Source: an uncultured Alphaproteobacteria bacterium (GTDB lineage: Bacteria; Pseudomonadota; Alphaproteobacteria; HIMB59; GCA-002718135). Taken from it: a stretch of 64,000 nucleotides of DNA. Each line of letters opens with the position of its first letter. Position 1 is the stretch's first letter. A program made the translations under genes and the position numbers. Shown here piece by piece: positions 6,955-26,658 of the stretch. The notes below the pieces were generated by a model that had not been told where the DNA came from, searched no databases, and saw only the letters and a program-made list of their open reading frames with translations. The stretch is taken from assembly GCA_902597015.1 (NCBI GenBank), contig CACJWQ010000001.1, forward strand, positions 4,520 to 68,519, written 5' to 3'.

Positions 6955-7475
6955 TTAACTGCTCGATAAGAAAAAATAAAATCTTCTTGGATTTTTGACT
7001 CAATAGCTCCTTTTCTTCTTGATCGTACTAGATCAATAGCTTCTTGTTTTTCATAATTAAATTCAACAAGTAAAATCGCAGCTATAGTGCCAGCTCTTCC
7101 TTTTCCTCCACGGCAATGTAAAACTATATTTTTACCATCTATCAATTCGTTCTTTAATAAAACTTTTGTTGTTTCCCATTTATATTTAAAATCTTTATCT
7201 GGTGCTCCCATGTCATAAATGGGTAAATGGTACCAAAGTAATTTATGTTCATAAATATTTTTGACAAACAAAGTTTTATCACACAATTTTTCAAATTCGC
7301 TATCTTCAACAAAAGAAGTAATAGAACTACAATTATTATTTTTAAATATTTCTAATTCGTTTTCTAAAATTGTTTCTTCAAATAAACCATTAGAGTTAAG
7401 GCCTGGAAAAGAAGTTAATATAATTTTGCCTGCAAATGACTTAGAGTCAATAAAATCATAATTGCTAAATTGCAT
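6951..7475 (-). CDS. Cysteine-dependent (dual-specificity/PTP-like) phosphatase
   Basis: C-x5-R P-loop HCRGGKGRAGT, with an upstream YDMGAPD (general-acid Asp region). No signal peptide. Confidence 0.75.
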   Translation of the reverse strand: MQFSNYDFIDSKSFAGKIILTSFPGLNSNGLFEETILENELEIFKNNNCSSITSFVEDSEFEKLCDKTLFVKNIYEHKLLWYHLPIYDMGAPDKDFKYKWETTKVLLKNELIDGKNIVLHCRGGKGRAGTIAAILLVEFNYEKQEAIDLVRSRRKGAIESKIQEDFIFSYRAVN

Positions 7476-8051: not shown

Positions 8052-8139
8052 TTATAATTAACTTATTAGAAAATAAATTCAATTACAACTTTAATAAGAT
8101 TGATCAAATTTATAATAATATTTATTAAGTAAATATTTA

Positions 8140-9237: not shown

Positions 9238-9244
9238 CAAAATA

Positions 9245-9877: not shown

Positions 9878-11319
9878 CTATATTCTTTAGAATAAAAGCT
9901 TGAAAATAAGATTGGTTGATCAAGATTTACATAATCAGTTTTAAGTTGGATAATTTTTTTTAAAACTTTTTCATCATTTCCCATATACGCAATCATAGAT
10001 TTTATATTCTTTTGTTTTAAAATATTTAATTCTTCTAGCTTATCTCTAAGGGTATATTCAATTATTTTAGGATTATAATTTTCAATTATTTCATTTAATG
10101 TATCAAAGTCTTGTCTCCTTAGCATATAATTTAAATTGGGATTAAAATTTATAATATCCATCATTATGTTTTTGTTTTCAGACCAAAAAAAACATTTTTC
10201 TAAATAATTAAATTTATTAATTGTATTAATTACATCATCTACTTTTCCATCTTTAATTTCAGCATATAAATTACCGTTATATAGTTCAACAATTTCTAAT
10301 ATTTCTTCTAATTTGGGAATTTGCTGATTTGTAAAATCTGAATTAAATTTTTTTCCTATTTCAATTTTATCTAAACTTGAAGAAAGAGTTTGATTGACGT
10401 ATCCTTTATAATTTGAAGTTCTATTAAAAGTAGAGTCGTGATTAATTATTAATTTTTTATCTGCTGTTGTTCTAATATCAATTTCTACATGAGAGAAACC
10501 AAATGATAATGCAAGTAAAGTTGATGCCAGTGAATTTTCTGGTGCTAGACTATTAAGTCCACGATGACATACAACTTCAACTGGCCATTCACTATTATTT
10601 TTAAAAATTGGATTAACAAGTTCTGGTTGATTAGAACAAATACCTAATACGGGTAAATTCCTTAATATCTTCATTCTTTCTGGGTTTTCTTCATGCCATA
10701 TAACTACTTTTTGATTTTTCTTTTCACACTTTTGAAAGAAATTATCGTCTAATAATTTTTCAGGATTCTCTAATTTTTCCCAGCACAAATGAATAATATC
10801 AGCACTCTCAGCATACTCAAATGGATTGAAACCAGAAGGAACGAGAATGGCGTAAGGATAAGAACTATCAAGTTTTTTTAATTCCTTTATTAACTCTATA
10901 TTAAATGAACCAATAATTACTCTTTGATAATTATATTTTTTTAGTAATTTAATTAGCAGATTAGAAACATATCTAGCTTTAATGTCGAGATAAATTCCTA
11001 TATTTAGTTTTATTGCAAGTTTAAGAACATCTTCAAAAAGAGGTGCAGTGTTTATAGGTAGCTTAGTTCTTATTTCTTGAAGATACAAATTAATAATATT
11101 TTCACCAGTATCTAGGATTGAATCATGAAAAACAATTAGATGTTTGTCTTTGGTTATTTGTACATCAACCTCCCAAAAATCTGCACCAATTTTAGCAGCA
11201 AAGAAAAAGGATTCTATTGTATTTTCTTGATAATAAGCGCTTGCTCCTCTGTGCGCAATAGAGTAGGGTTTATGAGGACTTAACCAATTTTCATTTGAGT
11301 CTTTTTCCATTTTTATCAA
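9874..11319 (-). CDS. Tandem glycerophosphodiester phosphodiesterase (two GDPD domains in one polypeptide)
   Basis: Two GDPD N-terminal signatures are present: SIAHRGASAYYQENTIESF...EVDVQITKDKHLIVFHD (aa ~20-66) and VCHRGLNSLAPENSLAS...EIDIRTTADKKLIINHD (aa ~251-295). This is the last gene of the Ugp-like operon. Confidence 0.85.
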   Translation of the reverse strand: MIKMEKDSNENWLSPHKPYSIAHRGASAYYQENTIESFFFAAKIGADFWEVDVQITKDKHLIVFHDSILDTGENIINLYLQEIRTKLPINTAPLFEDVLKLAIKLNIGIYLDIKARYVSNLLIKLLKKYNYQRVIIGSFNIELIKELKKLDSSYPYAILVPSGFNPFEYAESADIIHLCWEKLENPEKLLDDNFFQKCEKKNQKVVIWHEENPERMKILRNLPVLGICSNQPELVNPIFKNNSEWPVEVVCHRGLNSLAPENSLASTLLALSFGFSHVEIDIRTTADKKLIINHDSTFNRTSNYKGYVNQTLSSSLDKIEIGKKFNSDFTNQQIPKLEEILEIVELYNGNLYAEIKDGKVDDVINTINKFNYLEKCFFWSENKNIMMDIINFNPNLNYMLRRQDFDTLNEIIENYNPKIIEYTLRDKLEELNILKQKNIKSMIAYMGNDEKVLKKIIQLKTDYVNLDQPILFSSFYSKEYS

Positions 11320-12343
11320 ATAACAGTAAACCTTCTTTCATGATTCCCCAATTAACATCACTGTTTAATTCAACTCTATTTTCTGATGGCTGAATTGATC
11401 TTATGGTTATATTATTATTAAAACTAACATCATACAAATCCTCTCGTCCTTGTGTTTCAACAAATGTAATTTTTCCAGAAACTTTATTTTCATATTGTGG
11501 ACCAAAATGCTCGGGTCTGACACCTAAAACAATTTCTGTATTTTCTGATATATTTAAATTAGTATTTAGATTAATTTTTAAATTGCCAGAAATAAACATT
11601 CCATTATTAAAAACTCCATTAATGAAAGATATTGGTGGATTACCAATGAAGCCAGCAACAAACTTATCTATTGGATTTTTATACATTTCATCTGGAGTAG
11701 ATAATTGAATAATTTTTCCATCCTTCATTAAAGCAATTCTATCGCACATCGACATTGCTTCAACTTGATCATGTGTTACAAGAATTGCAGTGATTCCAGT
11801 TTCTTTTTGTATTCTTTTTATTTCAGAACGCATTTCTAATCTAAGTTTAGCGTCTAGGTTGGCAAGGGGCTCATCCAACAATAATACATCTGGTTCTCTG
11901 ATTAATGCTCTCGCTAATGCTACTCGTTGTTGCTGGCCACCTGAAAGTTGTGCGGGCTTTCTTTTAAGTAATTCGGGTATGTAGACAAGATTAGCTATCT
12001 CTTGAACCTTTTCATCAACAATTTTTGAGTCAAGTTTTTTTAATTTTAATGGAAACGCAATATTTTCGTAAACAGTCATATGTGGATACAAAGCATAGTT
12101 TTGAAAAACCACACCAACATTTCTTTTTTGGGAAGGCACATTTGACATATCTTTTTGATCAAATAAAAGTTTACCTGAATTCATTCTGTAAATTCCACAT
12201 ATAGAAAAAAGTGTTGTAGATTTTCCACATCCTGATGGACCTAAAAGTGCTAACATTTCTCCACTATGTACAGTAAGATCTAAATTTTCAATTACAGAAA
12301 CAGGACCAAAAGATTTACTAAATTTTTCTAAAACTAATTTCAT
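11291..12343 (-). CDS. ABC transporter ATPase, MalK/UgpC type
   Basis: Walker A GPSGCGKST, signature LSGGQQQR, Walker B LLLDEPLANLD. A C-terminal MalK-like regulatory domain is present. Confidence 0.85.
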   Translation of the reverse strand: MKLVLEKFSKSFGPVSVIENLDLTVHSGEMLALLGPSGCGKSTTLFSICGIYRMNSGKLLFDQKDMSNVPSQKRNVGVVFQNYALYPHMTVYENIAFPLKLKKLDSKIVDEKVQEIANLVYIPELLKRKPAQLSGGQQQRVALARALIREPDVLLLDEPLANLDAKLRLEMRSEIKRIQKETGITAILVTHDQVEAMSMCDRIALMKDGKIIQLSTPDEMYKNPIDKFVAGFIGNPPISFINGVFNNGMFISGNLKINLNTNLNISENTEIVLGVRPEHFGPQYENKVSGKITFVETQGREDLYDVSFNNNITIRSIQPSENRVELNSDVNWGIMKEGLLLFDKNGKRLK

Positions 12344-13170
12344 TATCCTTTTGTACCTCCTCCGTATATATTCATTAATTTTTTTTGAAACACTATGTAA
12401 ATAATAATAACTGGAATGGCATAGAATGTTCCAACTGATTTAAATAAATTAAAATCAAACTTGTTGTCATCAAGTATAAGTGCAGAAAGATAGGTTGATA
12501 GTACTTGTACATCACTACTTGGTGCCAGAACTAGAGGTAGTACAAATTCACTCCATCCTGATAAAAAAGAAAAAATTAGTAAAGCGGCAATTCCAGGCTG
12601 TACTTGAGGTAAAATAAGTTTTCGCCAAACAGTAAACCTGCTTGCACCATCTTGAATGCCAGCCATTTCAATTTCCCAAGGAACTGTATCGTAAAATCCT
12701 TTCATTATCCAAACACCGAATGGTAATTCTAAAGCTGATTTCACAAGTATGACGCCTAATAGGGTATTGTACAAACCCATGATTTGTAAGGTTAAAAAGA
12801 TAGCAACTATAAGAGAAATAGTTGGGAAAGCATGCAACATTATTAAACCGGCAAGAAAAATTTTTCTTCCGGGAATATCTAAACGAGAAAGAACATATCC
12901 TGATGTCATGGATAGTGAGGTAACCATAATTGAGGTTGTGCTTGCAAAAATAAAGGTGTTAAAAGTTACAGTCCAAATATAGGACTCACCTGTTTTTGGT
13001 GTTTCCCATAAAAAACGCCAATGCTCTAATGTAAAACTACTTGGCCAAATACCGCCAGGAGCAGGATTTGTGAAATTATCTATTATCTGAAAAATGAACA
13101 TTATTAATAGTGGCAAAGAAATTAATGTAAGTAGCAATGTTATTGGCCAAGAACGATAATAATTATTCAT
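12343..13170 (-). CDS. CUT1 ABC permease (UgpE-like)
   Basis: 6-TM MalG/UgpE-like permease with EAA loop EIEMAGIQDGASRFTVWRKLILP. The start/stop is shared with its neighbours. Confidence 0.85.
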   Translation of the reverse strand: MNNYYRSWPITLLLTLISLPLLIMFIFQIIDNFTNPAPGGIWPSSFTLEHWRFLWETPKTGESYIWTVTFNTFIFASTTSIMVTSLSMTSGYVLSRLDIPGRKIFLAGLIMLHAFPTISLIVAIFLTLQIMGLYNTLLGVILVKSALELPFGVWIMKGFYDTVPWEIEMAGIQDGASRFTVWRKLILPQVQPGIAALLIFSFLSGWSEFVLPLVLAPSSDVQVLSTYLSALILDDNKFDFNLFKSVGTFYAIPVIIIYIVFQKKLMNIYGGGTKG

Positions 13171-14472
13171 TTATCCCTCAATCCTAGGTTTAGTTACTAG
13201 GTCCTTAAAGTTAAAAAATTTCAAATAGAATAAGCTAGCAATTATTCCTATTATTACTAAGACCAAAGCATAAGTAGCGCCTAAGCCATATTGTAAATTA
13301 CCTGCATAATTTTGCAGTGCTGTGTGATACGCAGCTAAAGCCCAAACTTCGGTGGATCTACCTGGTCCTCCATTTGTAGCTAATAAAATGTATTCAAATG
13401 AAGTTAATAATGACAAAGTTTGATAGGCCGTTGTAAACATTATTGGCCATCTTAATTGAGGAATTATTATATTCCATATTTGTTGCCATCTGTTTGCACC
13501 ATCAACCTCAGATGCATATAACATTGATGATGGTATGGCCTTTATTGCCGACGAAAATAGTATCATTCCAAAAGATGCTCCAACAAATCCATTAATTAAT
13601 ACTATAACTGTCCAAGCATGAATTGGAGAATCCATCATCCAATTTTTTGGTGATGCACCAAAGTAAGTTGACATTTGTGAAATAAATCCAGTGTCCCAAG
13701 TGAACCATTTCCACATCAGAACATATAGTACAGGAGGAAGTATCCTTGGCAAAAACCAAATAGTCCTGAAAGTAGAAGCCGTTTTTGATGGTAAATAAAA
13801 CGTAGAAATTGCAAGAAACAAACCAAAAACTACATTGAATGTTAAAGTAAAAGAGACATAAATAAGTGTATAAAATGCAAACTTATAAGAAGATGGTAAA
13901 TTATAAATTAATTTGAAATTATTATTAGTCCAAGACCAACCAGTATAACTTTCTTTAATAATTACTTCTCTATCATTTTGGTTTATTTCAAGCTTTATTA
14001 AATTTTCCTCAAAAATAGACTTGCTAACAAACCTTTCATTAATAATTGATTCTTTAAATATTTCAGCGATTTCTTTTCTATCACGTGTTTTTTTAATTTT
14101 ATTCTTTTTTAATTTTTTAAGTGCTCTCTCTAAATCTTTTCTATTTGAAAATTTGTCACCAAAATATAAAGACTTAATTTCGTTTGATAGAGATTCTTTA
14201 TATTTTTCACTTATAATTTTTAAACCTTCTTCATTAATTGAGTACCCAGCATTTTCAAGTTTTTCAATAGTATCTTTTTGAATATTATATTTTTTTATTT
14301 CTTTAATTGTTTCTTGATTAATTAAATACTCTCCTCCTTTTATGCCTGTTGATGTTGACATATTTGTAAATGAAAAAAAAGCAGTCATAACAACTGGCGT
14401 TAGAAAAAATAATAAAACCATTATTAGTACTGGAGATATAAAAATAAAACCAAACCAGTTTATTCTATTCAT
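13171..14472 (-). CDS. CUT1 ABC permease (UgpA/MalF-like) with ~150-aa K/E-rich insertion after TM1
   Basis: EAA loop YASEVDGANRWQQIWNIIIPQL. At 433 aa it exceeds the usual ~290 aa because of an insert (GGEYLINQETIKEIKK...IIKESYTGWSW) between the first two TM segments. Confidence 0.8.
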   Translation of the reverse strand: MNRINWFGFIFISPVLIMVLLFFLTPVVMTAFFSFTNMSTSTGIKGGEYLINQETIKEIKKYNIQKDTIEKLENAGYSINEEGLKIISEKYKESLSNEIKSLYFGDKFSNRKDLERALKKLKKNKIKKTRDRKEIAEIFKESIINERFVSKSIFEENLIKLEINQNDREVIIKESYTGWSWTNNNFKLIYNLPSSYKFAFYTLIYVSFTLTFNVVFGLFLAISTFYLPSKTASTFRTIWFLPRILPPVLYVLMWKWFTWDTGFISQMSTYFGASPKNWMMDSPIHAWTVIVLINGFVGASFGMILFSSAIKAIPSSMLYASEVDGANRWQQIWNIIIPQLRWPIMFTTAYQTLSLLTSFEYILLATNGGPGRSTEVWALAAYHTALQNYAGNLQYGLGATYALVLVIIGIIASLFYLKFFNFKDLVTKPRIEG

Positions 14473-14529
14473 AATTTTTTATAAAATTAACAGGAGTGAA
14501 ATTCACTCCTGTTTATTATTTGTAAAGTA

Positions 14530-15876
14530 TTATCTAACTAGTAAATCATCTCCAAGTTTTGAAGATAATTCGCTTTCAAGATCATTTACTGCATCAGCGG
14601 CAGATTTAGAACCAGTCCACACAGACTCTAAACCAGCCCACATAGCTTCTGAAAATACACCATATTGTAAATGGTTAGGTTGAGCATTAGCTGACCCTAA
14701 AAGTACTTCAGTTGCTTCTGCAGCCCATTGGTCATTTGCATAAAGTCCAACATTAGATTGTTGTTTAGAAATACCTAAGTGTGCAGATTCAATAGCATGT
14801 AAAGAATTGATTCGAGGCTCAGAAGCAATCTTTACAAGCTGAGATGCGATATCTTGTAAATCCTCATCATTTTGATTTGTTACAAGATAAACTAGAGGAT
14901 GCGTAATGGTATTTGCTCTGCCTCTGTCATTTCCTGCTGGAATAAGAGTGAATTGAATTGTTCCGAAGAAATCATCATTTCCTTCTTTTCCAGTGTATCT
15001 AGCATAGTGCCATGTTCCACCATGCCAAAAAGCAGCTTTACCATTTGCAACTTCATTGTACCATTGTCCCCAATCAGTACCGATATGATTTTTCTTTGTC
15101 ACTCCTGCAGCAACTGCATCCGCAAAGAATTGATAAAATTCTTGCATTGAAGCTTTATCTAACAATAGTTTACCTGATGCAGAGTCCATTAACTCACCTC
15201 CAAACGATTGATAGAATTGAGCATAATCAGGACCATTAGACACTCTAGGGTAAAAACCATAACCCTCTTCTACTAATCCCATTGATACAGCTTTCTTTGC
15301 ATCTTCAAGAACATTAGCTAGAGTATAATCACCAGAAGCAACTTTAGAAGGTAGTGCATCAATATCACTATCCGAGTAACCAATACCTTTTAGATATTCC
15401 TTCCAAAAGAAGAAAGGTCTACTTTCTGCATCTTGAGGAAGACCATATTGTATTCCGTTGTAAGCTGCAATTTCCATTAAATTGTCATAAATATCATTCA
15501 ATGGCCAAGCATCCATATCAAGATAATCTTCCACAGGAACAATGTAACCTGCTTGACTCCATGGTGCTATGTCAAGGTGACTTGTAACAACTATATTAGG
15601 AGCTGATCCATCTTCAGCTGCTAGGGTAACAGCTTGTTTAAACTCTCCCCATCCACCAAAGTCTCTCTTACCTTCTACAGTTATGTTAATCTCTTCCCCT
15701 TGTATTGCCATTTCACGAGTAAGTATATCAGCAGCCATCTTGATTGCTTCCATTCTATAGTAGTCAGCTTCGTTAGTTCCTCCTGCCCATACTGTAATTT
15801 TTACATCTTTAGCTACAGCATAACTAAAACTAAATAGAGTTATAAGAAATGCTATAAAAATTTTTTTAATATTCAT
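14530..15876 (-). CDS. Family-1 periplasmic substrate-binding protein (UgpB-like; glycerophosphodiester/G3P inferred from operon)
   Basis: Signal peptide MNIKKIFIAFLITLFSFSYAVA. 448-aa acidic SBP and first gene of the operon ending in the tandem GDPD. Confidence 0.75.
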   Translation of the reverse strand: MNIKKIFIAFLITLFSFSYAVAKDVKITVWAGGTNEADYYRMEAIKMAADILTREMAIQGEEINITVEGKRDFGGWGEFKQAVTLAAEDGSAPNIVVTSHLDIAPWSQAGYIVPVEDYLDMDAWPLNDIYDNLMEIAAYNGIQYGLPQDAESRPFFFWKEYLKGIGYSDSDIDALPSKVASGDYTLANVLEDAKKAVSMGLVEEGYGFYPRVSNGPDYAQFYQSFGGELMDSASGKLLLDKASMQEFYQFFADAVAAGVTKKNHIGTDWGQWYNEVANGKAAFWHGGTWHYARYTGKEGNDDFFGTIQFTLIPAGNDRGRANTITHPLVYLVTNQNDEDLQDIASQLVKIASEPRINSLHAIESAHLGISKQQSNVGLYANDQWAAEATEVLLGSANAQPNHLQYGVFSEAMWAGLESVWTGSKSAADAVNDLESELSSKLGDDLLVR

Positions 15877-16136: not shown

Positions 16137-16934
16137 ATGAAAATATTGCACTTATCAGATCCTCATATTGAACCTGATATTTTACACGGAATAGACTCGC
16201 AATTAAGGTTTAAAAAAGCGTTAGAGCATATTAAAAAAAATCATTTAGACTCAGATTTGTTTGTAATATCAGGAGATATTACACACTTTGGAGGCGAAGG
16301 CGCATACGAGATATTTTTAGACATTGTAAAAGAGGCAGATTTACCGGAAAAACTATTTCCAAAATTAATTATAGGTAATCATGATAACAGAGAGAATTTT
16401 AAAAAATATTTTACTGCAGTTAAAAATGATGAAAATGGTTTCATTCAATACATTGAGACTATTGAAAATAAACTTTTTATTTTTTTAGATACCAATGAAC
16501 CAAAAACAGATAGCGGTTACTTTTGTGAAAGTAGGCAAAGATGGTTTGAAAATCAATTAGAAAAAGGAATAGACAAAAGTATATATATTTTTATGCATCA
16601 TAATCCTCTTGCACTTGCAGATAAAAATAGTGATAAAATAGGTCTTGTTCAAAAAGATAAATTTGAAAAAATATTATTAAAGTATAATAAAAATATCAAA
16701 CACTTATTTTTTGGACACCAGCATATTACTGTATCAGGTCAATACTTAGGTATTACATTTTCTTCACCACGAAGTACATGGTCTCCTTTAGTTTCAAACT
16801 TCTCAAATAAATATCGTTTAGGAACAGCAAATACTGATCCAAATTATAATGTTGTTTTAATAAAAGAAAATTCTTTAGTAGTGCATAGCGAAGACTTTTT
16901 AAAAACAGAAGTCAATTGGTTCGAGAGTGAATAA
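16137..16934 (+). CDS. Class-III metallophosphodiesterase (CpdA/Icc/GpdQ-like)
   Basis: Motifs HLSDPHI, ISGDITHFG, IGNHDNRE, FMHHNP and FGHQHIT are present. Confidence 0.8.
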   Translation: MKILHLSDPHIEPDILHGIDSQLRFKKALEHIKKNHLDSDLFVISGDITHFGGEGAYEIFLDIVKEADLPEKLFPKLIIGNHDNRENFKKYFTAVKNDENGFIQYIETIENKLFIFLDTNEPKTDSGYFCESRQRWFENQLEKGIDKSIYIFMHHNPLALADKNSDKIGLVQKDKFEKILLKYNKNIKHLFFGHQHITVSGQYLGITFSSPRSTWSPLVSNFSNKYRLGTANTDPNYNVVLIKENSLVVHSEDFLKTEVNWFESE

Positions 16935-16936
16935 TG

Positions 16937-18043
16937 TTATTTTTTTTCAATTACGAAAATTTCGTTATTAAAATAAAGACCTTTATTTTTTGAAACTATT
17001 TTCTGAACTACTTTTTCATAATTTCTTGTTTTTTCTACCTTCATTACTTTATCATCATCCATTTGATTGACATATATGGAAGCATTCCAAGCAGAAAAAA
17101 CTAATGATGTCGCTATACCTCCGCTGATTTCTGTTGGTAGAGCTCTCAGTTTACATTTAATAATTCTTTTTTCTCCAAAAGATAATCTTCTTAATAAATC
17201 TTTATCTAAATTTTTCTTAAGATAAGAAATGATACTATTTCCAAGAGAAGGAAATGGGTCCTCTTTTGGCCAAATTTTACGAATTATTTCATTAGCAGGA
17301 TCTTTTCCTGAAGCATGAATAGTTAATAATTTCCCTTTTGATTTTAACGCTCTAATCATTGGTTCGATGACATATTTTGATTTCTTTTCTGCTGTGATTC
17401 TTGAACGATAAGGCTGTGAAGCAATAATAAGATCAAATTTATTATCTGATTTTTTTTTGGTAGGTATTAATTCATTTACATTAAATTCTTGATCTTCGCG
17501 GTAGATAACCATGACTGAGGGCTCTTTATAAGTATGGTTACCTGACTTTTTATTAATTTCTATATTCCATTTTTTTTCTAAAAATTCATTTTGTTTTCTT
17601 AATTGTTGGGCAAATTCAAGAGAGGTATCTCCTTTTAATTTAATAATATTCCAATTAATTTTTTTCTGTTTAACGTCATTTTTTGATTTTAGGTTTGCAG
17701 CTTCAGCGTAGTGTAGATTTGAAATGACAAAAACCGTATTCTTATGTTCAACAAACCTGTCGGGTAATTTTTCTAAACCTAATCTTACATCTTCTATGCT
17801 TATTTCTTTTGTGCAAACTAATAGAGGTACGTTAGGCTTAGCCTCGTGGCACTGACGCATAACATTCATAAGTAAAGAACCATCTCCCATACCAGCATCA
17901 AATATTTTTATGCCAGGTTTTTGAGGTTTAATTTTATTTATGTGAGGACGTATCGCATCTGCAATTTGATTTTTTTCATTTGTTGTTGTGACAAATAATA
18001 AGTATTTTTGTCTGTTATCATAAAACCTGAAATTTTTTTTCAT
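16937..18043 (-). CDS. Hypothetical protein with split class-I SAM-methyltransferase-like motifs
   Basis: Motif I-like IKIFDAGMGDGS lies at aa ~45-56. FDLIIASQPY (motif IV-like) and GKLLTIHASG lie ~160 aa downstream. It begins 2 nt after the Fe-ADH gene. Confidence 0.45.
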   Translation of the reverse strand: MKKNFRFYDNRQKYLLFVTTTNEKNQIADAIRPHINKIKPQKPGIKIFDAGMGDGSLLMNVMRQCHEAKPNVPLLVCTKEISIEDVRLGLEKLPDRFVEHKNTVFVISNLHYAEAANLKSKNDVKQKKINWNIIKLKGDTSLEFAQQLRKQNEFLEKKWNIEINKKSGNHTYKEPSVMVIYREDQEFNVNELIPTKKKSDNKFDLIIASQPYRSRITAEKKSKYVIEPMIRALKSKGKLLTIHASGKDPANEIIRKIWPKEDPFPSLGNSIISYLKKNLDKDLLRRLSFGEKRIIKCKLRALPTEISGGIATSLVFSAWNASIYVNQMDDDKVMKVEKTRNYEKVVQKIVSKNKGLYFNNEIFVIEKK

Positions 18044-18045
18044 TA

Positions 18046-19158
18046 CTAATAAAGTCCCATTGATTTAGCTGAAGAGATGAAGGCTTCTTTATTGCCAATA
18101 AAGTTTTTACCTCGTTCCCCTAAAAAAGCATCATCTACTATATTATTCCATTCTTGAACAGGAACTTTTATTTCATTTAAGTTAAGAGGAACCTCTAAAG
18201 AACGCATAAATTCACTCAGATGATTTGCAGCATTCTCTAGATTATCGTTAAAAATTAATTTTAGTCTTTCCTCAGCGACACTATCAATTCCAACCATACT
18301 TTTAGTAATCATGGGTAATGTAAATGAGCAAGCAATACCATGTTGAATGCCGTAATTGAGCGTCACAGGGTATGATAGATTGTGCGCAATAGCAGTTTTT
18401 GTATTGGAAAACGCTAAGCCGGCATGAACGCATGCTAGTGCAATGTTTGAACGTAATTCAATGTTTCTTAAATCTTTAGCGAGAAGTGGTAAATTTTCTA
18501 ATACTAATTTTGATGCTTGTATTGCATGAGAAGCAGAAACTGGATTTGCATTAATATTCCAAATACTTTCCATTGAATGAGAGAGAGCATCTAGACCTGT
18601 TGAAATGGTCAAGCCTAAAGGCTTATCAACCATAATAGATGGGTCGATAATTGCTTTTTCTGCATAAAGAGATTTATGCGCCAAAGATAATTTATTATTT
18701 TTTTCTTTATCCCATATTGTGGCCCAACACGTAAGCTCACTTGATGTTCCTGAAGTTGTAGGTATCGCAATAATCTTGATTGGATTTTCTACTCTTGGAC
18801 TTTTCTTATTACGAACGAAATCTGTTAGATATTCTTGTTTATCTTTAAATGCAGCAATTGCTTTAGCTGTGTCTGTAACAGAGCCACCACCTATAGCTAA
18901 AATATAATCTACCGATTCATTGATTGAAGAAAATTTATTTTGTAGCTCTAAAATATCCTTATAGTCTGGATTAGGCTGAACATCCGTCATAATGGATAAA
19001 GGTGGATTTGAAGAAGATTTTAATTCATCGCTATATTTTTTAAAAATTTCTTCTGGATGAGTGATTATGATGTAGTTCTTATTTTTAAGAGCATCATGTA
19101 CTTCTTTAAATCTATTTTCTCCAAAGATAATTTCAACAGGGTTAAAATAATTCCACAT
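18046..19158 (-). CDS. Group-III iron-containing alcohol dehydrogenase (candidate phosphonoacetaldehyde/2-hydroxyethylphosphonate oxidoreductase)
   Basis: AIGGGSVTDTAKA nucleotide-binding motif, plus metal-binding His cluster LDALSHSMES and AIAHNLSYP...HGIACS. Substrate is inferred from context only. Confidence 0.8.
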   Translation of the reverse strand: MWNYFNPVEIIFGENRFKEVHDALKNKNYIIITHPEEIFKKYSDELKSSSNPPLSIMTDVQPNPDYKDILELQNKFSSINESVDYILAIGGGSVTDTAKAIAAFKDKQEYLTDFVRNKKSPRVENPIKIIAIPTTSGTSSELTCWATIWDKEKNNKLSLAHKSLYAEKAIIDPSIMVDKPLGLTISTGLDALSHSMESIWNINANPVSASHAIQASKLVLENLPLLAKDLRNIELRSNIALACVHAGLAFSNTKTAIAHNLSYPVTLNYGIQHGIACSFTLPMITKSMVGIDSVAEERLKLIFNDNLENAANHLSEFMRSLEVPLNLNEIKVPVQEWNNIVDDAFLGERGKNFIGNKEAFISSAKSMGLY

Positions 19159-19162
19159 TACC

Positions 19163-20242
19163 TTAAATTGATTTTGCCGCTTTAGTTAAAATTGTCATTT
19201 TCTCAATTGCTTGTTCTCGCGTAAAGAAACCTAAACCACAATCTGGCGCAGCTATTAAACGGTGTTCATCAATATGTTCAAGTGAATCTTTGATACGAAC
19301 TCTTACTTCTTCAACAGACTCCATTCTACTTTTTGCAATATCAATAAATCCAAAAATTACTTTTGTTTTAGTAAATTTTTCTAAAAGATTTAAATCATTA
19401 TGCCTATGTGAATCTTCCAAAGATACTTCATCAATGGTTGAATCATCTACAAGTGATGCAATTCTATCATAAGCATCTAGATCAGCCTTTTTATACCCTT
19501 CTGAATCTAGTGAGTTGGGATAACCACAACAAATATGGCAAACGCGTTGCACTTCTTTAGGAATACCATGCATCATTCTTTCTAAATTTTCCATACCATA
19601 TGAATGAGCTTCATCAGGCTTTCTAGCAAATACTGGTTCATCAATTTGAATATACTGACAACCTGCATCTACAAGTGCCTTGATTTCTTTATTGAGAGCT
19701 AATGCTAAATCAAAACCAAGTTTTTTCATGTCATCATAGTAATTGTTGGCAATTGAATCTGTAATTGTCATTGGTCCAGGTAGCGTAATTTTAACTGGGT
19801 TTTTTGTAAATTGTTGTGCACTCTTCCAGTCTAAATGCATACGTATTTCTTTACTTGAAATCGGTGCAACAATAGTTGGAAGATCAGCTTCGAACGCGCC
19901 TTGTCTTACTGACTTATGTGTAACTTCTTTAAAACTTATTCCATTTAAAAATCGACATTGATATAATACGTAACTCTCACGTCTGACTTCTCCATCTGTT
20001 GGAACATCAATACCCGCATTTACTTGATCAGTTATAACTTCTTTAATTGCTGCTAAAAATAATTTTTCAGCATCTGCACCTGCAGACTCTAATGCTTTTT
20101 CATATGCGCCAGGTGACCAATTTGATAATAATCCTTTTGATGCTTTTCTCTCTTCTTCTGATTTTGTCCCTAAAAACCAATCTTGAATGGGTGTTTGTTT
20201 AGGTTTTGGATAAGCACCTATTGTAGTTGTTGTAAGAGGCAT
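19163..20242 (-). CDS. Stand-alone MetE C-terminal-domain-like (Meth_synt_2) Zn-dependent methyltransferase
   Basis: 359 aa. Zn-ligand pattern is H-x-C (VCHICCGYP), E (VSLEDSH) and C (APDCGLGF). There is no N-terminal MetE domain. Confidence 0.7.
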   Translation of the reverse strand: MPLTTTTIGAYPKPKQTPIQDWFLGTKSEEERKASKGLLSNWSPGAYEKALESAGADAEKLFLAAIKEVITDQVNAGIDVPTDGEVRRESYVLYQCRFLNGISFKEVTHKSVRQGAFEADLPTIVAPISSKEIRMHLDWKSAQQFTKNPVKITLPGPMTITDSIANNYYDDMKKLGFDLALALNKEIKALVDAGCQYIQIDEPVFARKPDEAHSYGMENLERMMHGIPKEVQRVCHICCGYPNSLDSEGYKKADLDAYDRIASLVDDSTIDEVSLEDSHRHNDLNLLEKFTKTKVIFGFIDIAKSRMESVEEVRVRIKDSLEHIDEHRLIAAPDCGLGFFTREQAIEKMTILTKAAKSI

Positions 20243-20329: not shown

Positions 20330-21583
20330 TTACATAAGATCGTTTATTTCTTCCATCATTTCTTCTTGAAGATCTGCCATATCATCAGCGTCGCCTGTAG
20401 CAATTTCTTCCGTGAAATCATAGATTACCTGTGTAACAGCTAATCCATTTTCTCCAGGATACGCAAACCAATCAGCAAGAAGTGGAAGTTGTTCAACAGC
20501 AGTAAGTTTATTAGGGTTTTGACTATAGAAGTCACCTAATAAATCATTCGCTGCTTTGTTTGGTGGAACATATCCAGTTGTTTCAGCAACCAATGCAGCA
20601 CCAATACCTGATGTAATGAACTTTAAGAAAGTCCATGCAGCATCAACTCTTGCTGGGTCATCAGATGTAGACACTAACATTGCAGCGTTTCCACCTGCTG
20701 GTAATCTTGCTGGTGTTCCATTGTTAACTCCTGCCATTCCAGGGAATGGTGCAGTTTTTAAAACAAAGTCTGCCTTTGCTGCATTAACTGAGCCCAAGCT
20801 TGAAGTAGACCAGAACATCATACCAATAGTACCTGCGTTAAACGCAGCTTGACCATCAGCAATTGAATAGTTTGGCATATTACATCCACTCATGATTGCT
20901 TTCATTTGCTCTAACGTTGCAAGTCCTGCATCACCACCCATATTTACAGCTCCATCCTTAACCATTGGAACATTCTGAGTATGCATTAATGCTTGGTGGA
21001 ACCAGTTACCTGTGATGTTCCAACCAAAGTATAGAGTTCCTTTACCTGCTGCTTCCAATTTATTACATGCTGCAATAACTTCGTCCCAGTTAGTTGGAAT
21101 ACTATCTACACCTGCTTCAGCTAATAGATCCATGTTGTAATATCCGACTGGCGTTGATACAGAAAATGGTAATCCATAAACTTCACCACCGAATGTTGAA
21201 AGACTTAACATAGCAGAATGGTAACCATCTTTTTCAAAAGCTGCTTCTTTTGCGATAAATGGCTCTAAAGACTTAGCAATACCTTTGTCAACTAGAGGTG
21301 CCTGTCTGTTAAGACCTTGCATTGTTACATCTGGTAAATTACCTGAAGTAGACTCTCTGAAGATTGTTGCAGTTGCATCCTCATAGTTTTCATAAGTTGC
21401 TCTAAATTTAACTTGAATATCTGGATGTGCTTTTTCAAACTCTGGCATAATAGCTTGAAACGTTACATCGAATAATCCTGAATAAGGATAAGCTACTTCT
21501 ATTTCAATAGACTTAGCTGAATTAACAGAACCATAAAAACCGAAAGCTAATACGGCTGCCAATCCTGTAATTAATTTTTTCAT
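20330..21583 (-). CDS. Family-1 (CUT1-type) periplasmic substrate-binding protein linked to phnY-phnA
   Basis: Signal peptide MKKLITGLAAVLAFGFYGSVNSA. 417-aa acidic SBP with GC/codon usage typical of highly expressed genes in this window. Confidence 0.8.
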   Translation of the reverse strand: MKKLITGLAAVLAFGFYGSVNSAKSIEIEVAYPYSGLFDVTFQAIMPEFEKAHPDIQVKFRATYENYEDATATIFRESTSGNLPDVTMQGLNRQAPLVDKGIAKSLEPFIAKEAAFEKDGYHSAMLSLSTFGGEVYGLPFSVSTPVGYYNMDLLAEAGVDSIPTNWDEVIAACNKLEAAGKGTLYFGWNITGNWFHQALMHTQNVPMVKDGAVNMGGDAGLATLEQMKAIMSGCNMPNYSIADGQAAFNAGTIGMMFWSTSSLGSVNAAKADFVLKTAPFPGMAGVNNGTPARLPAGGNAAMLVSTSDDPARVDAAWTFLKFITSGIGAALVAETTGYVPPNKAANDLLGDFYSQNPNKLTAVEQLPLLADWFAYPGENGLAVTQVIYDFTEEIATGDADDMADLQEEMMEEINDLM

Positions 21584-21718: not shown

Positions 21719-23161
21719 TTACCAAGGTAGTGAGAAAGTTTTTACATTAGTAAAGCTTTTCATTGCTTCAATTACACCTTCTTTATAACCAAGACCTGAA
21801 TCTTTAATTCCTCCAAAAGGTGACATTTCAATTCTATAGCCTGGAACCTCCCAAATATTTACAGTGCCAACATTTAAACCTTGAATATATTTTTTTGCTC
21901 GCATGAAGTTATTTGTACATACACCAGATGATAATCCAAATGCGGTTGAATTAGATATTTTCATTACAGCTTCATCGTCATTAGGCACACGAATGATTGG
22001 TATAACTGGACCAAATGTTTCTTCTAAAACTAATTCACTTTTAGGATCAACATGATCTACAACTATTGGAGGTAACAAAGCGCCTTTTCTTCCAGGGTGA
22101 TATAAAATTTTTGCACCATCTTCTTCAGCCATAGAGACTCTTTTGTCAAAAAGTTCTGCAGCTTCAGCATTAACAACAGTACCTAAGTCTGTTTCCATAT
22201 TCATAGGATCACCAAATTTAATTTTCTTAGCACGCTCAAGAGCCATTTCAACAAATTGATCTGCAATGGATTCTTGAACCAATATTCTTTTAACAGCTGT
22301 ACAACGTTGACCAGAATTTTTCGTTGCTCCAGTAACAGCTAGTTCAACAGCTTTTTTAAGATCATCACCATCTAAGTCATTTAAAACAATTAAAGGGTCA
22401 TTACCGCCAAGCTCTAGTACTGTTCTTTTGTATCCAGCTTGTTCAGCAATTAATTTTCCTACACCCACACTGCCTGTAAAAGTAATTAGATCAATATTTG
22501 GATTTTTGATCATTTCTGATCCGATATCTTGAGGCCATCCAGTTACAACTGAAAACATTTCTGGTGGTAAACCTGCTTCATATAAAACATCAGCAAGTAC
22601 CATTGCTGTTAAGGGTGTTAATTCTGTTTGTTTACATACAGTACAATTATTAGTTGCAATTGAAGGTGCAATTTTATGCGCTACCATATTCAAAGGATGA
22701 TTAAATGGAGTTATTGCTGAAATTGCCGTTAAAGGTTCTCTTATGGTAAATATTTTTCTCGCTTTTCCATGTGGAGTTAAATCACAAGAAAATATTTCTC
22801 CATCATCATGAATACAAAGTTGAGCCGTTAATGAAAATACATCGAAAGCTCTTCCTACTTCGTATAAAGAATCTTGTTTTGAGATACCAAGTTCTAAAGT
22901 AATAATATCAGAAATTTCTTCTTTTCTTTTAACAAGTACTTCCGCAGCAGTTTGAAGAATTTTTTGTCTCTCATATCTTGTAAGTTTAGGCTGATAATTT
23001 GCAGCTATATCTAAAGCCTTTCTTGCATGCTCTGCAGTACCGGCTGGAACCGTTCCGATTACTTCACCTGTAAAAGGGTACTCAACATTTATTGTTTTAT
23101 CTGAAGTAACTTTTTCTCCAGCTATACGCATTGCTTCATTAATCATTTTTTTGTGCATCAT
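21719..23161 (-). CDS. phnY: Aldehyde dehydrogenase; phosphonoacetaldehyde dehydrogenase by context
   Basis: ALDH motifs ELGGNDP, GQRCTA (catalytic Cys) and EETFGPV are present. It has a 4-nt ATGA overlap with the upstream phnA. Confidence 0.75.
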
Positions 23162-24399
23162 AGGGCTCCATTTATTGCATAATAAAATGCATCATAGTTA
23201 TATAATTGTTTGCTAGTATCTAAGTTTTGTAATTTTAAATTTGATATGAATGGCACTTCTCTTTCATGGAGTCCTCCATGAGAACGTAAAGGTTCATTTA
23301 ATCCAGAAAGATTGTGTTTATCTTCCGATGAACCAATAGTCATAAATTCTGAAGACATACATATAATATCTCCCATTCTATCAGGAGGTAAATTGTAAGT
23401 AGAGCATCCTTCATCTTTTGTTAAAACAACTTCTATATCTTTTATTTCTTTAATAGCATTTACAACTGAATCTACCTTGCTCTTGTCTTCTAAATAAATT
23501 GTTGCAAAAGAACCAAGTGAACCATGATGAACAACATATGGATCTGTAATTGGTAGGATGACTTTAGCCATGTTTGGTTCAAATTTTTTATCTAAATAAT
23601 CTTGTAAAAATATTGCATTAGGTGAACCATCTTCTTTTGATTTTGGTTTCATTCCGTGATCTGCTGTAATGATTATAGAAACATTCTCCTTATTTAAAAG
23701 ACCAATATATTTATCAAACATTGCATAAAATTTATTTGCTGTTTCGTTTCCTGGTGCATATTTGTGTTGAATATAATCCGTAGTCGATAAATACATGATA
23801 TTTGGTTTGAACTCTTCAAGAAGCTTGACACCTGCAGCCATTACAAATTCAGAAAGTCCTTCAGAGTATACTTCTGGCACTGGCATCCCTAACCAATCGT
23901 TTACATTATCTATACCATTGAGATCTTTTGTTGCTTGATCAGATTTTTCAGCAGAAAAACAAATAGCTCTCTCATCATCAAAACTTAATCCATTTCCTAA
24001 AAGTGTTCTCAGCTTATCTTTTGCAGTAACGAGAGCAATTTTAGAACCAGAATTATAAAATTTTTCAAAAATAGTTGGTGCTCGCATATATTTTGGGTCA
24101 TTCATCATTACTTCTTCACCGGTCTCGGGTGTATAAAAGAAGTTTCCGCATATACCGTGAACAGAACTTGGTTGGCCTGTTACAATCGAAATGTTATTTG
24201 GATTTGTAAAACTTGGAATAGCGCTGTGAACAAGTAGGTTTTCACCACTTGCAATTAATTTATCAAGATTTGGTGTAAGATTAGATTTTGATGCTTCTTC
24301 GAGATACTCTTTTTGACTACCATCAAGGCATATAACAATAGCAGTTTTTGAGAAAGAGCTTGGATATTCTCTTTTATTAATTTCTAAATTACCGGACAC
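23158..24399 (-). CDS. phnA: Phosphonoacetate hydrolase (alkaline-phosphatase superfamily)
   Basis: Motifs [38 protein letters not shown] (nucleophile-Thr region) and ITADHGM are present. At 413 aa it is the typical PhnA length. Confidence 0.85.
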
Positions 24400-24575: not shown

Positions 24576-25709
24576 GTGGGAACAATATCGCTTAAAAATA
24601 TTTCAAAGGCATTTGGGTCTACACAAGTACTTAATAATTTGAATGTTGATATAAACGATGGAGAATTCTTAACATTAGTTGGTCCATCTGGTTGTGGTAA
24701 ATCTACATTACTTAGAATAATTGCAGGATTGGAACAGCAGACTTCAGGTGATGTATTAATAGATAATAAAAATGTAAATAGAGTTAGAGCCAGTGAAAGA
24801 GATTTGGCAATGGTATTCCAATCATATGCTCTTTATCCTCATCTCACAGTAAGAAGAAATTTAGAAACTCCATTAAGACTGAGAGATTATAATGCATTTG
24901 AAAGACTACCCTTGATTGGTAATTTTTCTCCAAGCAAAAAAGAGAAAACAGAATCTATTAATCAATTAGTAAATAAAACTTCTGAAACTCTAAAAATTTC
25001 AGAACTATTAGATAGAAAACCAGGACAATTGTCAGGTGGTCAAAGACAAAGAGTTGCTCTTGGTCGTGCCATGGTTAGAGAGCCTGTTGCTTTTTTAATG
25101 GATGAACCTCTTTCAAATTTAGATGCGGCTCTGAGAGTTCACATGCGATCTGAATTATCTGAACTTCATAATTCACTTAAAACTACTTTTGTGTACGTAA
25201 CACATGATCAAGCAGAAGCGTTAACTATGTCTTCTCGAATGGCTGTGATGATTGATGGAAATTTATTACAACTAGATACACCTCAAGAAGTATATGACAA
25301 TCCTTCCTCATTAAGTGTAGCTCAATTTGTTGGAAGTCCAAAAATAAATATATTTAAAGGAACTGCGGACTCTAGTGGGACGATAAGTTTTCTCAACGTT
25401 AATCTAAAAAGAAAAAGTTCTGAAAGTAATACAGATTTACATATTGGTATTCGACCAGAACATTTAGAAATTACAAATGAAAGTAATGAAAATACATTTA
25501 GTGGAACAGTTGCATATAGAGAAAATTTAGGTTCAGATATTTTCTTTCATGTAAATATTGAAGACGGTTCAAATAAAATAATTGTAAGAGGCTTACCACA
25601 ATTTACACACCAAATTTCAAATGGTTCTAGTGTAAATATAAAAAGAGTTTCAGATAAAGCATTACTATTTAATCAAGCAGGAATGAGGGTTCAATTTACT
25701 AATGCATAA
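24576..25709 (+). CDS. ABC transporter ATPase, MalK type
   Basis: GTG start with SD AGGGGG. Walker A GPSGCGKST, signature LSGGQRQR, Walker B FLMDEPLSNLD, plus a C-terminal regulatory domain. Confidence 0.85.
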   Translation: MGTISLKNISKAFGSTQVLNNLNVDINDGEFLTLVGPSGCGKSTLLRIIAGLEQQTSGDVLIDNKNVNRVRASERDLAMVFQSYALYPHLTVRRNLETPLRLRDYNAFERLPLIGNFSPSKKEKTESINQLVNKTSETLKISELLDRKPGQLSGGQRQRVALGRAMVREPVAFLMDEPLSNLDAALRVHMRSELSELHNSLKTTFVYVTHDQAEALTMSSRMAVMIDGNLLQLDTPQEVYDNPSSLSVAQFVGSPKINIFKGTADSSGTISFLNVNLKRKSSESNTDLHIGIRPEHLEITNESNENTFSGTVAYRENLGSDIFFHVNIEDGSNKIIVRGLPQFTHQISNGSSVNIKRVSDKALLFNQAGMRVQFTNA

Positions 25710-26658
25710 TTCAAAAGCTCACATATGGTTTATTGCACCAGCAATCATACTGATGATAATTATTTTAATTTTTCCTCTTTTTCTTGCAGGAGGAATTTCT
25801 TTTACTGACTATAATTTAGGAAACAAAACATTCGAGTGGGTTGGACTAGAAAATTATGACAAGATGTTCAATCGAAAAACATATGTCAAAATGATTTGGG
25901 CCACAGCGACGTATGTTATTGTTGTCGTTCCAATTTCTGTTGTACTTGGATTATGTGCTGCTATGCTCTTAAATTCACTAAGGTTTGGCGCTGATATATA
26001 TAAAACAATTTTCTTTCTTCCAGTTATGGCAACTCTTCTTGCAATGGCAATTGCATGGGAATTTACTCTTCATCCAACATTAGGAATTGTAAATAGTTTT
26101 TTAGCAAATGGGTGTGGAGGAGTTAGGGAATTCATTCTTGGTTTTCATTGGTTGCCATGGGTAGACTCACAAGAAAGCTGGTACGCTGTAGCATGTGCAA
26201 ACAACATGGATTTTCCATATTGGTTAAAACAAAAAAATACCGCGATTTGGACAGTATGTTTCATAGGAATTTGGCAGGCATTTGGTTTTAACATGGTTTT
26301 ATATTTAGCTGGTTTAACAAGCATACCAAGAGAGTTATACCAAGCTGCAGAAATGGATGGAGCTAAATCTACTTGGGAACAATTTAAGCTTGTTACATGG
26401 CCAATGCTTGGTCCAACAACGTTGTTTGTTGTCACTATTACTACAATTAGAACGTTTCAAGTATTTGATACCATCGAAATACTCACCAAGGGTGGTCCAT
26501 CAAAAACAACGTATGTCATGATGTATGCGATCTTTGAAAAAGCTATTCAACAAAACTTAACAAGTATCGGTGCAGCAATCACAGTTGTCTTTATTGGATT
26601 TATTCTCGTGTTAACGTTTTTCCAAAGATATGTCATTGAGAAGAGAGTTCATTATTAA
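25702..26658 (+). CDS. CUT1 ABC permease (MalF/UgpA-like)
   Basis: EAA loop ELYQAAEMDGAKSTWEQFKLVTWPML. Overlaps the ATPase gene by 8 nt. Confidence 0.85.
   Translation: MHNSKAHIWFIAPAIILMIIILIFPLFLAGGISFTDYNLGNKTFEWVGLENYDKMFNRKTYVKMIWATATYVIVVVPISVVLGLCAAMLLNSLRFGADIYKTIFFLPVMATLLAMAIAWEFTLHPTLGIVNSFLANGCGGVREFILGFHWLPWVDSQESWYAVACANNMDFPYWLKQKNTAIWTVCFIGIWQAFGFNMVLYLAGLTSIPRELYQAAEMDGAKSTWEQFKLVTWPMLGPTTLFVVTITTIRTFQVFDTIEILTKGGPSKTTYVMMYAIFEKAIQQNLTSIGAAITVVFIGFILVLTFFQRYVIEKRVHY

Follow-up and report, generated by a model that had tools for sequence, protein, structure and literature searches.

Do three genes that lie end to end on one strand belong to one pathway? The question is raised by a 64,000-nucleotide stretch of DNA from an uncultured alphaproteobacterium (contig CACJWQ010000001.1; the whole stretch is called the window below), in which a gene for a MetE-like zinc methyltransferase is followed on the minus strand by a gene for an iron-type alcohol dehydrogenase (ADH) and by a gene for a protein that we call X. 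A preliminary description read the trio as one unit acting on phosphonates. Coordinates and translations bear out the gene structure that it gave, i.e., three minus-strand open reading frames (ORFs) with gaps of 4 nt (MetE-like/ADH, 19159-19162) and 2 nt (ADH/X, 18044-18045), and with all the motifs that it quoted. X has 5157 relatives in a database clustered at 90% (779 representatives at 50%, with full-length members down to 26-29% identity), and the MetE-like protein has 4645; given these relatives, the trio consists of real genes and not of chance ORFs. Ocean metagenomes are rich in all three proteins, with single clusters at 90% identity that comprise about 870 to 1000 sequences. The trio shares one direction and is probably transcribed together. 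We propose, with a probability of roughly one half for the reading as a whole, that the trio is a mosaic of three separately inherited modules within a phosphorus-scavenging island, namely a 2-hydroxyethylphosphonate (HEP) dehydrogenase, a methyltransferase linked to an importer, and X as a protein of the methyl cycle.

Separate inheritance of the three genes

Gene contexts were collected from about 170 loci, which do not form an unbiased sample. Among these, arrangements were mapped by tblastn in 41 loci of SAR11 type, a label inferred for the window from its composition (G+C content about 31%) and from the labels of its nearest relatives (single-cell genomes, uncultured Alphaproteobacteria or Pelagibacteraceae). 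On the strand of the trio, the genes upstream are, in order, those for PhnA, PhnY and a UgpB-like substrate-binding protein; the genes for the ATP-binding cassette (ABC) ATPase and permeases of the same importer are divergent (Table 1). We define the following four arrangements: (a) the window type, with the ABC genes and then phnA-phnY-binding protein-MetE-like-ADH-X; (b) phnA-phnY-ADH-X, without the three ABC genes, the binding-protein gene or the MetE-like gene (L002, L007 and L018); (c) phnA-phnY-X (L019 and L021); and (d) X without ADH, MetE-like, PhnA or PhnY genes within 10 kb (L022-L039 and L041-L043). X is the only gene of the trio that is always kept across the 41 loci. The proteins that L007 and L018 have in common with the window are 93-98% identical to it. 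In L019, a remnant of 35 C-terminal residues of the ADH lies between phnY and X (6342-6446), and L021 has none; the remnant in L019, a locus 95-98% identical to the window, is direct evidence of a recent loss of the ADH. On a separate metagenome contig (L106), the MetE-like and ADH genes occur without X.

The preliminary description had taken the trio for one dedicated unit, a claim that is not supported, given that near-identical strains carry subsets of it. It had also described the binding protein as serving phnY-phnA; the gene of this protein belongs instead with the MetE-like gene and the divergent ABC genes, and these five are present or absent as a set. In arrangement (b), two separate segments are missing together, i.e., the three ABC genes, and the pair of binding-protein and MetE-like genes; strains without both are 95-99% identical to the window. 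Because both segments vary together, the MetE-like gene appears to be tied to the importer, not to the ADH or X.

An intrinsic-terminator-like hairpin lies between the binding-protein gene and the MetE-like gene; this is the element first described as attenuator-like, and its shape is typical of such terminators. A stem-loop with a U-tract occurs at the same position in seven other loci (L001, L020, L107, L116, L089, L092 and L093), which span different lineages and differ in stem sequence. Because the position of the hairpin is kept while the stem sequences differ, the arrangement would fit a single operon of binding-protein and MetE-like genes with an internal attenuator.

Proposed phosphonate oxidation and a predicted importer-linked methyltransferase

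The ADH contains the Pfam domains Fe-ADH and ADH_Fe_C, the motif GGGSVTDTAKA, and histidines at positions 194, 259 and 273. Its top NCBIfam family is TIGR03405 (phosphonate-associated Fe-ADH; 367.1 bits), and the runner-up family scores 159 bits. In the HEP dehydrogenase PhpC, the metal ligands are Asp191, His195, His260 and His274, and the substrate residues are Lys157, Thr256, Tyr264 and Arg349, of which Tyr264 is PhpC-specific (PMC13576164). At a constant offset of 1, residues D190, H194, H259, H273, K156, T255 and Y263 of the ADH agree with those of PhpC, and R349 is one position off; this match was read by spacing, not via an alignment to the P. fungorum sequence. Experiments have established a catabolic role as HEP dehydrogenases for PhpC-type homologues whose genes cluster with phnX or phnY-phnA (Piazza et al. 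2026, PMC13576164). The gene order phnA-phnY-ADH agrees with that of the degradative clusters characterised in the same work, and in every SAR11 variant that has the ADH gene, it adjoins phnY-phnA. Our analysis thus upholds the earlier proposal that the ADH oxidises HEP for PhnY and then PhnA: the TIGR03405 match, the PhpC residues and the adjacency to phnY-phnA make it a well-supported candidate for a PhpC-type dehydrogenase that converts HEP to phosphonoacetaldehyde. The accompanying statement that no pathway had been described fails for the ADH part, the HEP route having been published in 2026 (PMC13576164); the text of that article contains no mention of X or of a methionine-synthase relative flanking the ADH.

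In the proposed route, the ADH would oxidise HEP to phosphonoacetaldehyde (its family and context come from this analysis, its activity from that of homologues; PMC13576164), PhnY would convert phosphonoacetaldehyde to phosphonoacetate, and PhnA would hydrolyse phosphonoacetate to acetate and phosphate. PhnW is a second entry into the PhnY/PhnA trunk, through which 2-aminoethylphosphonate would be fed.

For the MetE-like protein, Pfam finds the Meth_synt_2 catalytic domain only (121 bits, residues 53-357); the N-terminal domain, Meth_synt_1, is subthreshold (16.8 bits against a cutoff of 27), and the protein reaches none of the NCBIfam cutoffs for methionine synthases. Among solved structures, the closest relative of the protein is 3RPD (153 bits, 33% identity over 289 residues), a MesD from Shewanella (Price et al. 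2021, PMC7857596). Compared to 3RPD, the zinc ligands are kept, i.e., His and Cys in HICCGY, Glu in SLEDSH and Cys in PDCGLG, as are the Glu (TDGE) and Asp (IDEP) that bind the amino group of homocysteine, and the Tyr of HICCGY, which corresponds to MesD Tyr226. In MesD, homocysteine is bound by Ser22, Glu73 and Asp188, and Tyr226 is MesD-specific (PMC7857596). The carboxylate-binding Ser22 is replaced by Ala (TTTIGA), as read from the motif, which lies outside the HMMER alignment. MesD requires oxygen and the protein MesX (DUF1852), and its methyl donor is unknown (PMC7857596). No DUF1852 protein was found among the Pfam-scanned window neighbours or the annotated contexts of MetE-like orthologues, the rest of the window being covered by NCBIfam only or unscanned for DUF1852. 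The level that defines MesD orthologues (390 bits or more against ACIAD3523, about 55% identity) is not reached, with 3RPD at 153 bits and 33% serving as proxy. By its residues, the MetE-like protein is predicted to be a core zinc homocysteine S-methyltransferase that is related to MesD and is not a MesD by the criteria of PMC7857596.

Orthologues of the MetE-like protein, 55-72% identical, exist outside SAR11. The gene lies directly 3' of the gene for the same importer's binding protein in L089, L090, L092-L098, L101, L105 and L116, except that one Metallophos gene (a calcineurin-like phosphodiesterase) stands between the two in L098 and L101. In L120, a calcineurin-like phosphodiesterase gene is 3' of the MetE-like gene. 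In L087, the importer is divergent, across a Zn-ADH gene, beside a Zn-ADH/MetE-like pair; its binding protein is itself UgpB-like, and those upstream of the MetE-like gene in L089, L090, L092-L098, L101 and L105 are 72-79% identical to it, while the binding protein of L116 is of the window's own type. Importer ABC orthologues, 58-75% identical, lie 5' of the binding-protein and MetE-like genes in other lineages. Clustering of the neighbours of this clade revealed no further recurrent partner gene.

A second, unrelated class of Zn-ADHs (PbfG, pf00107) also acts as HEP dehydrogenase (PMC13576164). Zn-ADHs found beside the MetE-like gene in L087, L090, L097 and L104 have as their top family TIGR03366, 'putative phosphonate catabolism associated alcohol dehydrogenase' (271-295 bits, cutoff 328), and are assigned to the PbfG type of that article on this match. 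Fe-type ADHs stand beside the MetE-like gene in SAR11 and L116; in L085, one with 421 bits is 5.5 kb from it and adjoins a gene for a PhnD-like binding protein. PhnA (480-521 bits) and/or PhnY (793 bits) are encoded near the MetE-like gene in L093, L104 and L116. In L104, the order is aldehyde dehydrogenase, MetK, MetE-like, then Zn-ADH and PhnA, the last two adjoining on the same strand; in L116, MetK, assigned by clustering with that of L104, is a few genes from the MetE-like gene. The tie between the MetE-like protein and phosphonates that was suggested from the window alone is thereby strengthened as far as gene context goes, with orthologues beside both classes of HEP dehydrogenases and beside PhnA/PhnY. 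The presence of two unrelated ADH classes, for which one substrate is proposed, beside one methionine-synthase relative is the strongest single argument for a functional link to HEP catabolism. As a separate observation, a PF02574 homocysteine S-methyltransferase gene lies 3' of X in L002 (11318-12223), a SAR11 strain without the MetE-like gene, and it may replace the latter functionally.

What the importer carries bears directly on the methyl donor. Its binding protein is closest, with low scores, to UgpB-type and sugar-binding proteins. An AepX/AepS transporter of 2-aminoethylphosphonate was considered and rejected, those proteins belonging to another binding-protein family (pfam13343). Yu et al. 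are said to have described in 2014 that HEP occurs in phosphonoglycans as hexose and glycerol esters; of these, the glycerol ester would go well with a binding protein of UgpB type and a phosphodiesterase. We envisage that the importer may take up an esterified or methylated organophosphonate of HEP type. The MetE-like protein, as a folate- and B12-independent zinc homocysteine S-methyltransferase that is functionally part of the importer module, would then move a methyl group from the imported compound or a close derivative to homocysteine, yielding methionine. A HEP-type alcohol would be left over for the ADH, and the neighbouring phosphodiesterase might handle larger ester groups. The donor in this scheme is a guess, and our confidence in methyl transfer from an imported organophosphonate or close derivative is low.

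The same importer could serve another donor. An imported glycerophosphodiester from lipid head groups, such as glycerophosphocholine or a sulfonium analogue, might be cleaved by the phosphodiesterase, and its choline-type alcohol oxidised by an ADH and an enzyme resembling betaine-aldehyde dehydrogenase (BADH) to a betaine or thetin that methylates homocysteine, which would make the phosphonate genes mere neighbours. The UgpB-like binding protein and the recurrence of phosphodiesterase genes in the module agree with such an onium donor, as do the aldehyde dehydrogenases of L093, L097 and L104, for which the top family is BADH (439-541 bits, below cutoff). The series of ADH, aldehyde dehydrogenase and homocysteine methyltransferase mirrors the established conversion of choline to betaine and then to dimethylglycine. 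However, both ADH types match phosphonate families far above choline dehydrogenase (367 versus 124 bits for the window ADH), the PhpC-specific Tyr (PMC13576164) is retained in the window protein, and the Zn-ADH of L104 adjoins PhnA; an onium donor of this kind is, consequently, unlikely.

The X family and the methyl cycle

X has two motifs, IFDAGMGDGS (47-56) and LIIASQPY (205-212), about 160 aa apart, and matches no Pfam or NCBIfam family above threshold. Its AlphaFold2 (AF2) model (pLDDT 91, pTM 0.90) displays the core of a class-I methyltransferase, interrupted between strands 3 and 4 by an insertion of about 95 aa, which accounts for the "split" motifs. A Foldseek search with this model gave 133 matches at E<=0.001, of which the top 50 are all methyltransferases or enzymes of methyltransferase fold; the best is histamine N-methyltransferase (E 7e-10, TM-score about 0.5, 12-14% identity), and the phosphonate O-methyltransferase HvrF is included at E of about 1e-6. 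Near-invariant in the family are motif I (DAGxGDG; A50, G51 and G53), K79/E80 after strand 2, and many polar residues. On this model, X is a protein of class-I methyltransferase fold, predicted to bind S-adenosylmethionine (SAM) or S-adenosylhomocysteine (SAH), from an uncharacterised family. A search of the PDB with the family profile found no sequence match, 72,556 plasmids contained no sequence relatives, and the exact sequence has no record in the contig index. An EgtD-like N-terminus was rejected: among 23 members, no EgtD- or MetW-type family appeared even at E<=1. In one case (P0215), the N-terminal half of an X-like protein is fused to a PEMT/ICMT-like methyltransferase domain of membrane type.

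The neighbours of X were grouped by clustering, with representatives checked against Pfam, in the SAR11-type loci and in 39 others (Steroidobacteraceae, Woeseiaceae, Tardiphaga, Acidimicrobiia, Rhodothermales, Haliangium and others). No ADH, PhnA or close PhnY relative is encoded within 10 kb of X in 22 of the 41 SAR11-type loci and in any of the 39 non-SAR11 loci, where the sole matches of PhnY type are aldehyde dehydrogenases of 27-33% identity, at least 3 kb off (L045, L046 and L049). The notion of X as a phosphonate enzyme is, therefore, not supported: most sampled loci lack phosphonate genes, and X is linked instead to genes of the methionine/SAM cycle. In 28 of the 39 non-SAR11 loci, it adjoins a gene for a divergent MTHFR-like protein, MetK, AhcY, a PfkB kinase or a MetE-like protein. 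The MTHFR-like gene (24 bits to PF02219, without the N-terminal part) is immediately 3' of X in 16 loci, and is often followed by PfkB kinase, MetK, AhcY, FolD and Fhs genes, with GcvT-like genes nearby. The MTHFR-like protein (L064, 11071-12057, and 15 other loci) is similar to what has been described for ACIAD1783/PP_4638, whose function is unknown (PMC7857596).

A MetE-like gene is immediately 5' of X in six Steroidobacteraceae loci (L046, L051, L057, L066, L070 and L072; around 4000-12000), and overlaps the start of X in L171. Also encoded in the Steroidobacteraceae clusters are a TonB receptor, a VOC protein, another MetE-like paralogue and dioxygenases for ring cleavage (hydroxyquinol 1,2-dioxygenase), and genes of PnpD-like and FAD ring-hydroxylase type occur in related loci. 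These clusters look like aromatic catabolism that uses core methionine-synthase-like proteins, perhaps for folate-independent O-demethylation. The X of other SAR11 clades either comes after metY (NF006004, 665 bits) and a gene for a hydrolase, or is beside fhs, with gshA and gshB nearby. Rfam gave no riboswitch or other RNA match at gathering thresholds in the window. It likewise returned no match around X in seven related loci, nor 5' of metY in L022 at E<=1; the latter locus, from SAR11, has an IMES-2 RNA motif (163 bits) at 1497-1637, some 6 kb before metY-hydrolase-X.

A conserved domain of about 60 aa, joined on through a low-complexity linker, stands at the N-terminus of X in 15 of the 39 non-SAR11 loci. 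The model of this domain (pLDDT 91) has the fold of XRE/lambda-repressor helix-turn-helix (HTH) proteins (HipB, SinR, C-proteins; TM-score 0.6-0.7, probability 0.9-0.99), with E-values that are weak, as expected at 63 residues. The extension has no Pfam or PDB sequence match and was identified by fold search alone. In L092 and L094, an HTH-bearing X is encoded 200 nt upstream, on the same strand, of the operon of ABC, binding-protein and MetE-like genes. SahR and SamR are regulators of metK, ahcY, metF, metH, metE and bhmT that respond to SAH or SAM (PMC4239095). By analogy, HTH-fused X at the head of SAM-cycle and methionine-synthase operons is most simply read as a regulator responsive to SAM or SAH. 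The family as a whole would fit best as a methyl-cycle module that binds SAM/SAH and is not phosphonate-specific; the SAR11 X may be a methyltransferase that depends on SAM, or may sense SAM/SAH as a partner of methionine-cycle enzymes. A bolder proposal, which we hold to be rather doubtful, is that the MetE-like clade is a new methionine synthase using the methyl group of an imported organophosphonate and that X represents a new family of SAM/SAH sensors governing methyl-cycle operons. The donor might then be an O-methyl ester of a phosphonate attacked by the zinc-homocysteine thiolate, as in demethylation of Ada type, or an onium phosphonate.

The recurrence of X beside methionine synthases could also mean that X is their obligatory partner, as MesX is for MesD, and makes or carries the donor, for example S-methylmethionine formed from methionine and SAM, in a cycle with MetK and AhcY. 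X does adjoin MetE-like genes of three clades, the PF02574 gene of L002, and genes for MetK, AhcY and the PfkB kinase, and MesD requires a partner protein and has an unknown donor (PMC7857596). We consider an obligatory partnership quite unlikely, because a donor derived from SAM yields no net methionine, the MetE-like gene has no adjacent X in L087, L089, L090 and L106, most SAR11 loci with X have no MetE-like gene, and the HTH fusions favour sensing over catalysis.

Less probable still is an integrated pathway, in which the trio acts on one family of methylated phosphonates: the MetE-like protein would strip N- or O-methyl groups (e.g., from trimethyl-2-aminoethylphosphonate, in the manner of BHMT), X would modify the same substrates, and the ADH would complete the route to phosphonoacetaldehyde. 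Such a pathway would explain the tight same-strand spacing of the trio, the recurrence of the MetE-like clade by phosphonate genes and of X with MetE-like genes, and the presence of HvrF among the Foldseek matches. However, X is kept when both other genes are lost, and many X genes, in SAR11 and elsewhere, have no phosphonate gene nearby; demethylation of trimethyl-2-aminoethylphosphonate yields an amine, not an alcohol, so that the link to the ADH would be unexplained; and HvrF matches no better than dozens of other class-I methyltransferases.

It should be noted that several points weigh against the mosaic of three modules that we prefer. The retention of X where the ADH and the MetE-like gene are both lost means that its role here may be unrelated to either, and the SAR11 X has no DNA-binding domain (the window X begins at FRFYDN, 2 nt after the ADH stop codon), so the regulator reading is not directly applicable to it. 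The ADH scores under the curated TIGR03405 cutoff (367.1 against 423.7 bits), and the Zn-ADHs are likewise under that of TIGR03366. L087, L089 and L090 have no PhnA, PhnY or PhnX within 8 kb, and the close MetE-like orthologues of L083 (duplicate L084), L091 and L110 have no importer or phosphonate genes nearby. No known chemistry connects the conversion of HEP, via phosphonoacetaldehyde, to phosphonoacetate with a homocysteine methyltransferase, the literature examined documents no natural methylated HEP derivative, and all functional links are guilt by association. The absence of any coupling, in which case successive insertions and deletions in a hypervariable island would have brought the trio together and the MetE-like protein would be a spare methionine synthase of the ordinary kind, is the least probable alternative: it accounts for gene content that varies among near-identical strains and for MetE-like orthologues with unrelated neighbours, but not for associations that recur in unrelated lineages with different gene orders and non-orthologous ADHs, or for the conserved attenuator between the binding-protein and MetE-like genes.

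The surrounding island and known systems

The window region is a phosphorus-scavenging island (Table 1). Besides the genes discussed above, it holds PhoU- and PHO4-type genes, named via the annotation of their L001 orthologues. The PhnZ-like oxygenase has as its partner a 174-aa ORF, not the usual PhnY*-type dioxygenase; according to the annotation of the L001 orthologue, this ORF is tyrosine-/dual-specificity-phosphatase-like. The side-by-side metallophosphoesterase and glycosyltransferase resemble the PlcP-Agt lipid-remodelling pair of phosphate-starved marine bacteria. The window copy of the cupin-type ORF matches no NCBIfam family, and its orthologues weakly match Ureidogly_lyase (40 bits in L003); in SAR11 loci, a copy of this family adjoins a 365-aa Aminotran_5 gene that corresponds to the window phnW in size and position. 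The cupin-type ORF may belong to aminophosphonate catabolism.

Table 1. Coordinates of the trio and of other features of the window.
Feature	Coordinates	Strand	Details
Metallophosphoesterase and glycosyltransferase genes	3065-4874	plus	side by side
PhnZ-like HD-domain oxygenase	6951-8051	minus	TIGR03276, 201 bits (cutoff 214.6)
PhnW, 2-aminoethylphosphonate:pyruvate transaminase	8140-9237	plus	NF010006, 512 bits (cutoff 296)
Cupin-type ORF	9245-9877	plus	210 aa; directly 3' of phnW
Second UgpB-like ABC operon	9874-15876		ends in double-GDPD gene
Protein with two tandem GDPD domains	9874-11319	minus	481 aa; last gene of second UgpB-like ABC operon
Calcineurin-like phosphodiesterase (SpdA/CpdA-like)	16137-16934	plus	convergent with X
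X	16937-18043	minus	368 aa
ADH	18046-19158	minus	370 aa
MetE-like protein	19163-20242	minus	359 aa
Intrinsic-terminator-like hairpin	20299-20275	minus	11 pairs (6 G-C), then T-run
UgpB-like substrate-binding protein of importer	20330-21583	minus	CUT1, SBP_bac_1; Pfam/NCBIfam
PhnY, phosphonoacetaldehyde dehydrogenase	21719-23161	minus	TIGR03250, 798 bits (cutoff 636)
PhnA, phosphonoacetate hydrolase	23158-24399	minus	TIGR02335, 468 bits (cutoff 408)
ABC ATPase	24576-25709	plus	same importer, divergent from binding-protein gene
ABC permease	25702-26658	plus	same importer, divergent
ABC permease	26658-27551	plus	same importer, divergent

What is new here is the importer-linked MesD-like clade and the X family; the role of the ADH has already been published. 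HEP esters are thought to form a large part of marine dissolved organic phosphorus (PMC13576164), and the island illustrates how their uptake and mineralisation may proceed in a cell of SAR11 type. Which methyl donor serves aerobic "core" methionine synthases has been an open question since 2021, and a sister clade linked to an importer and to phosphonates gives a short list of donors. The bolder proposal on the MetE-like clade, if true, would link the acquisition of phosphorus to the supply of methionine in bacteria that are abundant in the ocean, and would suggest a class of donors for MesD-like enzymes. X represents a large family that is found in methionine/SAM-cycle operons of several phyla, and the HTH-fused forms hint at SAM-cycle regulators of a third type.

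The ADH resembles PhpC-type HEP dehydrogenases in fold, in top family, and in the D/H/H/H ligands and the Tyr at their published spacing; as in the PhpC-type clusters, it adjoins phnY-phnA, without phnW in the same operon. It differs in scoring below the family cutoff, and in being followed by X and preceded by a methionine-synthase relative. The MetE-like protein shares with MesD the core Meth_synt_2 domain only, the zinc ligands, the Glu, the Asp and the equivalent of Tyr226, the occurrence in aerobic bacteria and, judged by domain content, a methyl donor that is not a folate. In contrast to MesD, it has 33% identity where the orthologue line is about 55%, and Ala in place of Ser22; its partners are an ABC importer, HEP dehydrogenases and sometimes X, with no DUF1852 among the neighbours scanned. 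With BHMT and MmuM (PF02574), which use onium donors, it would share zinc-thiolate methyl transfer to homocysteine, whereas these enzymes belong to an unrelated fold family and the window protein to Meth_synt_2.

X has in common with histamine N-methyltransferase and other small-molecule class-I methyltransferases the Rossmann-type core, motif I, the acidic residue after strand 2 and an extra subdomain on the substrate side; histamine N-methyltransferase has no counterpart of the insertion between strands 3 and 4 or of the conserved N-terminal FRFxDNRxKY helix. SahR and SamR, which we take to carry a methyltransferase-like effector domain, differ from the X family in that the fusions of X are of XRE type, not ArsR type, its ligand domain of about 370 aa has a large insertion and belongs to no detectable sequence family, and the SAR11 X is without any DNA-binding domain. 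They are alike in that the X family often joins a ligand domain of methyltransferase fold to a DNA-binding domain, and is encoded beside metK, ahcY, metF-like and methionine-synthase genes.

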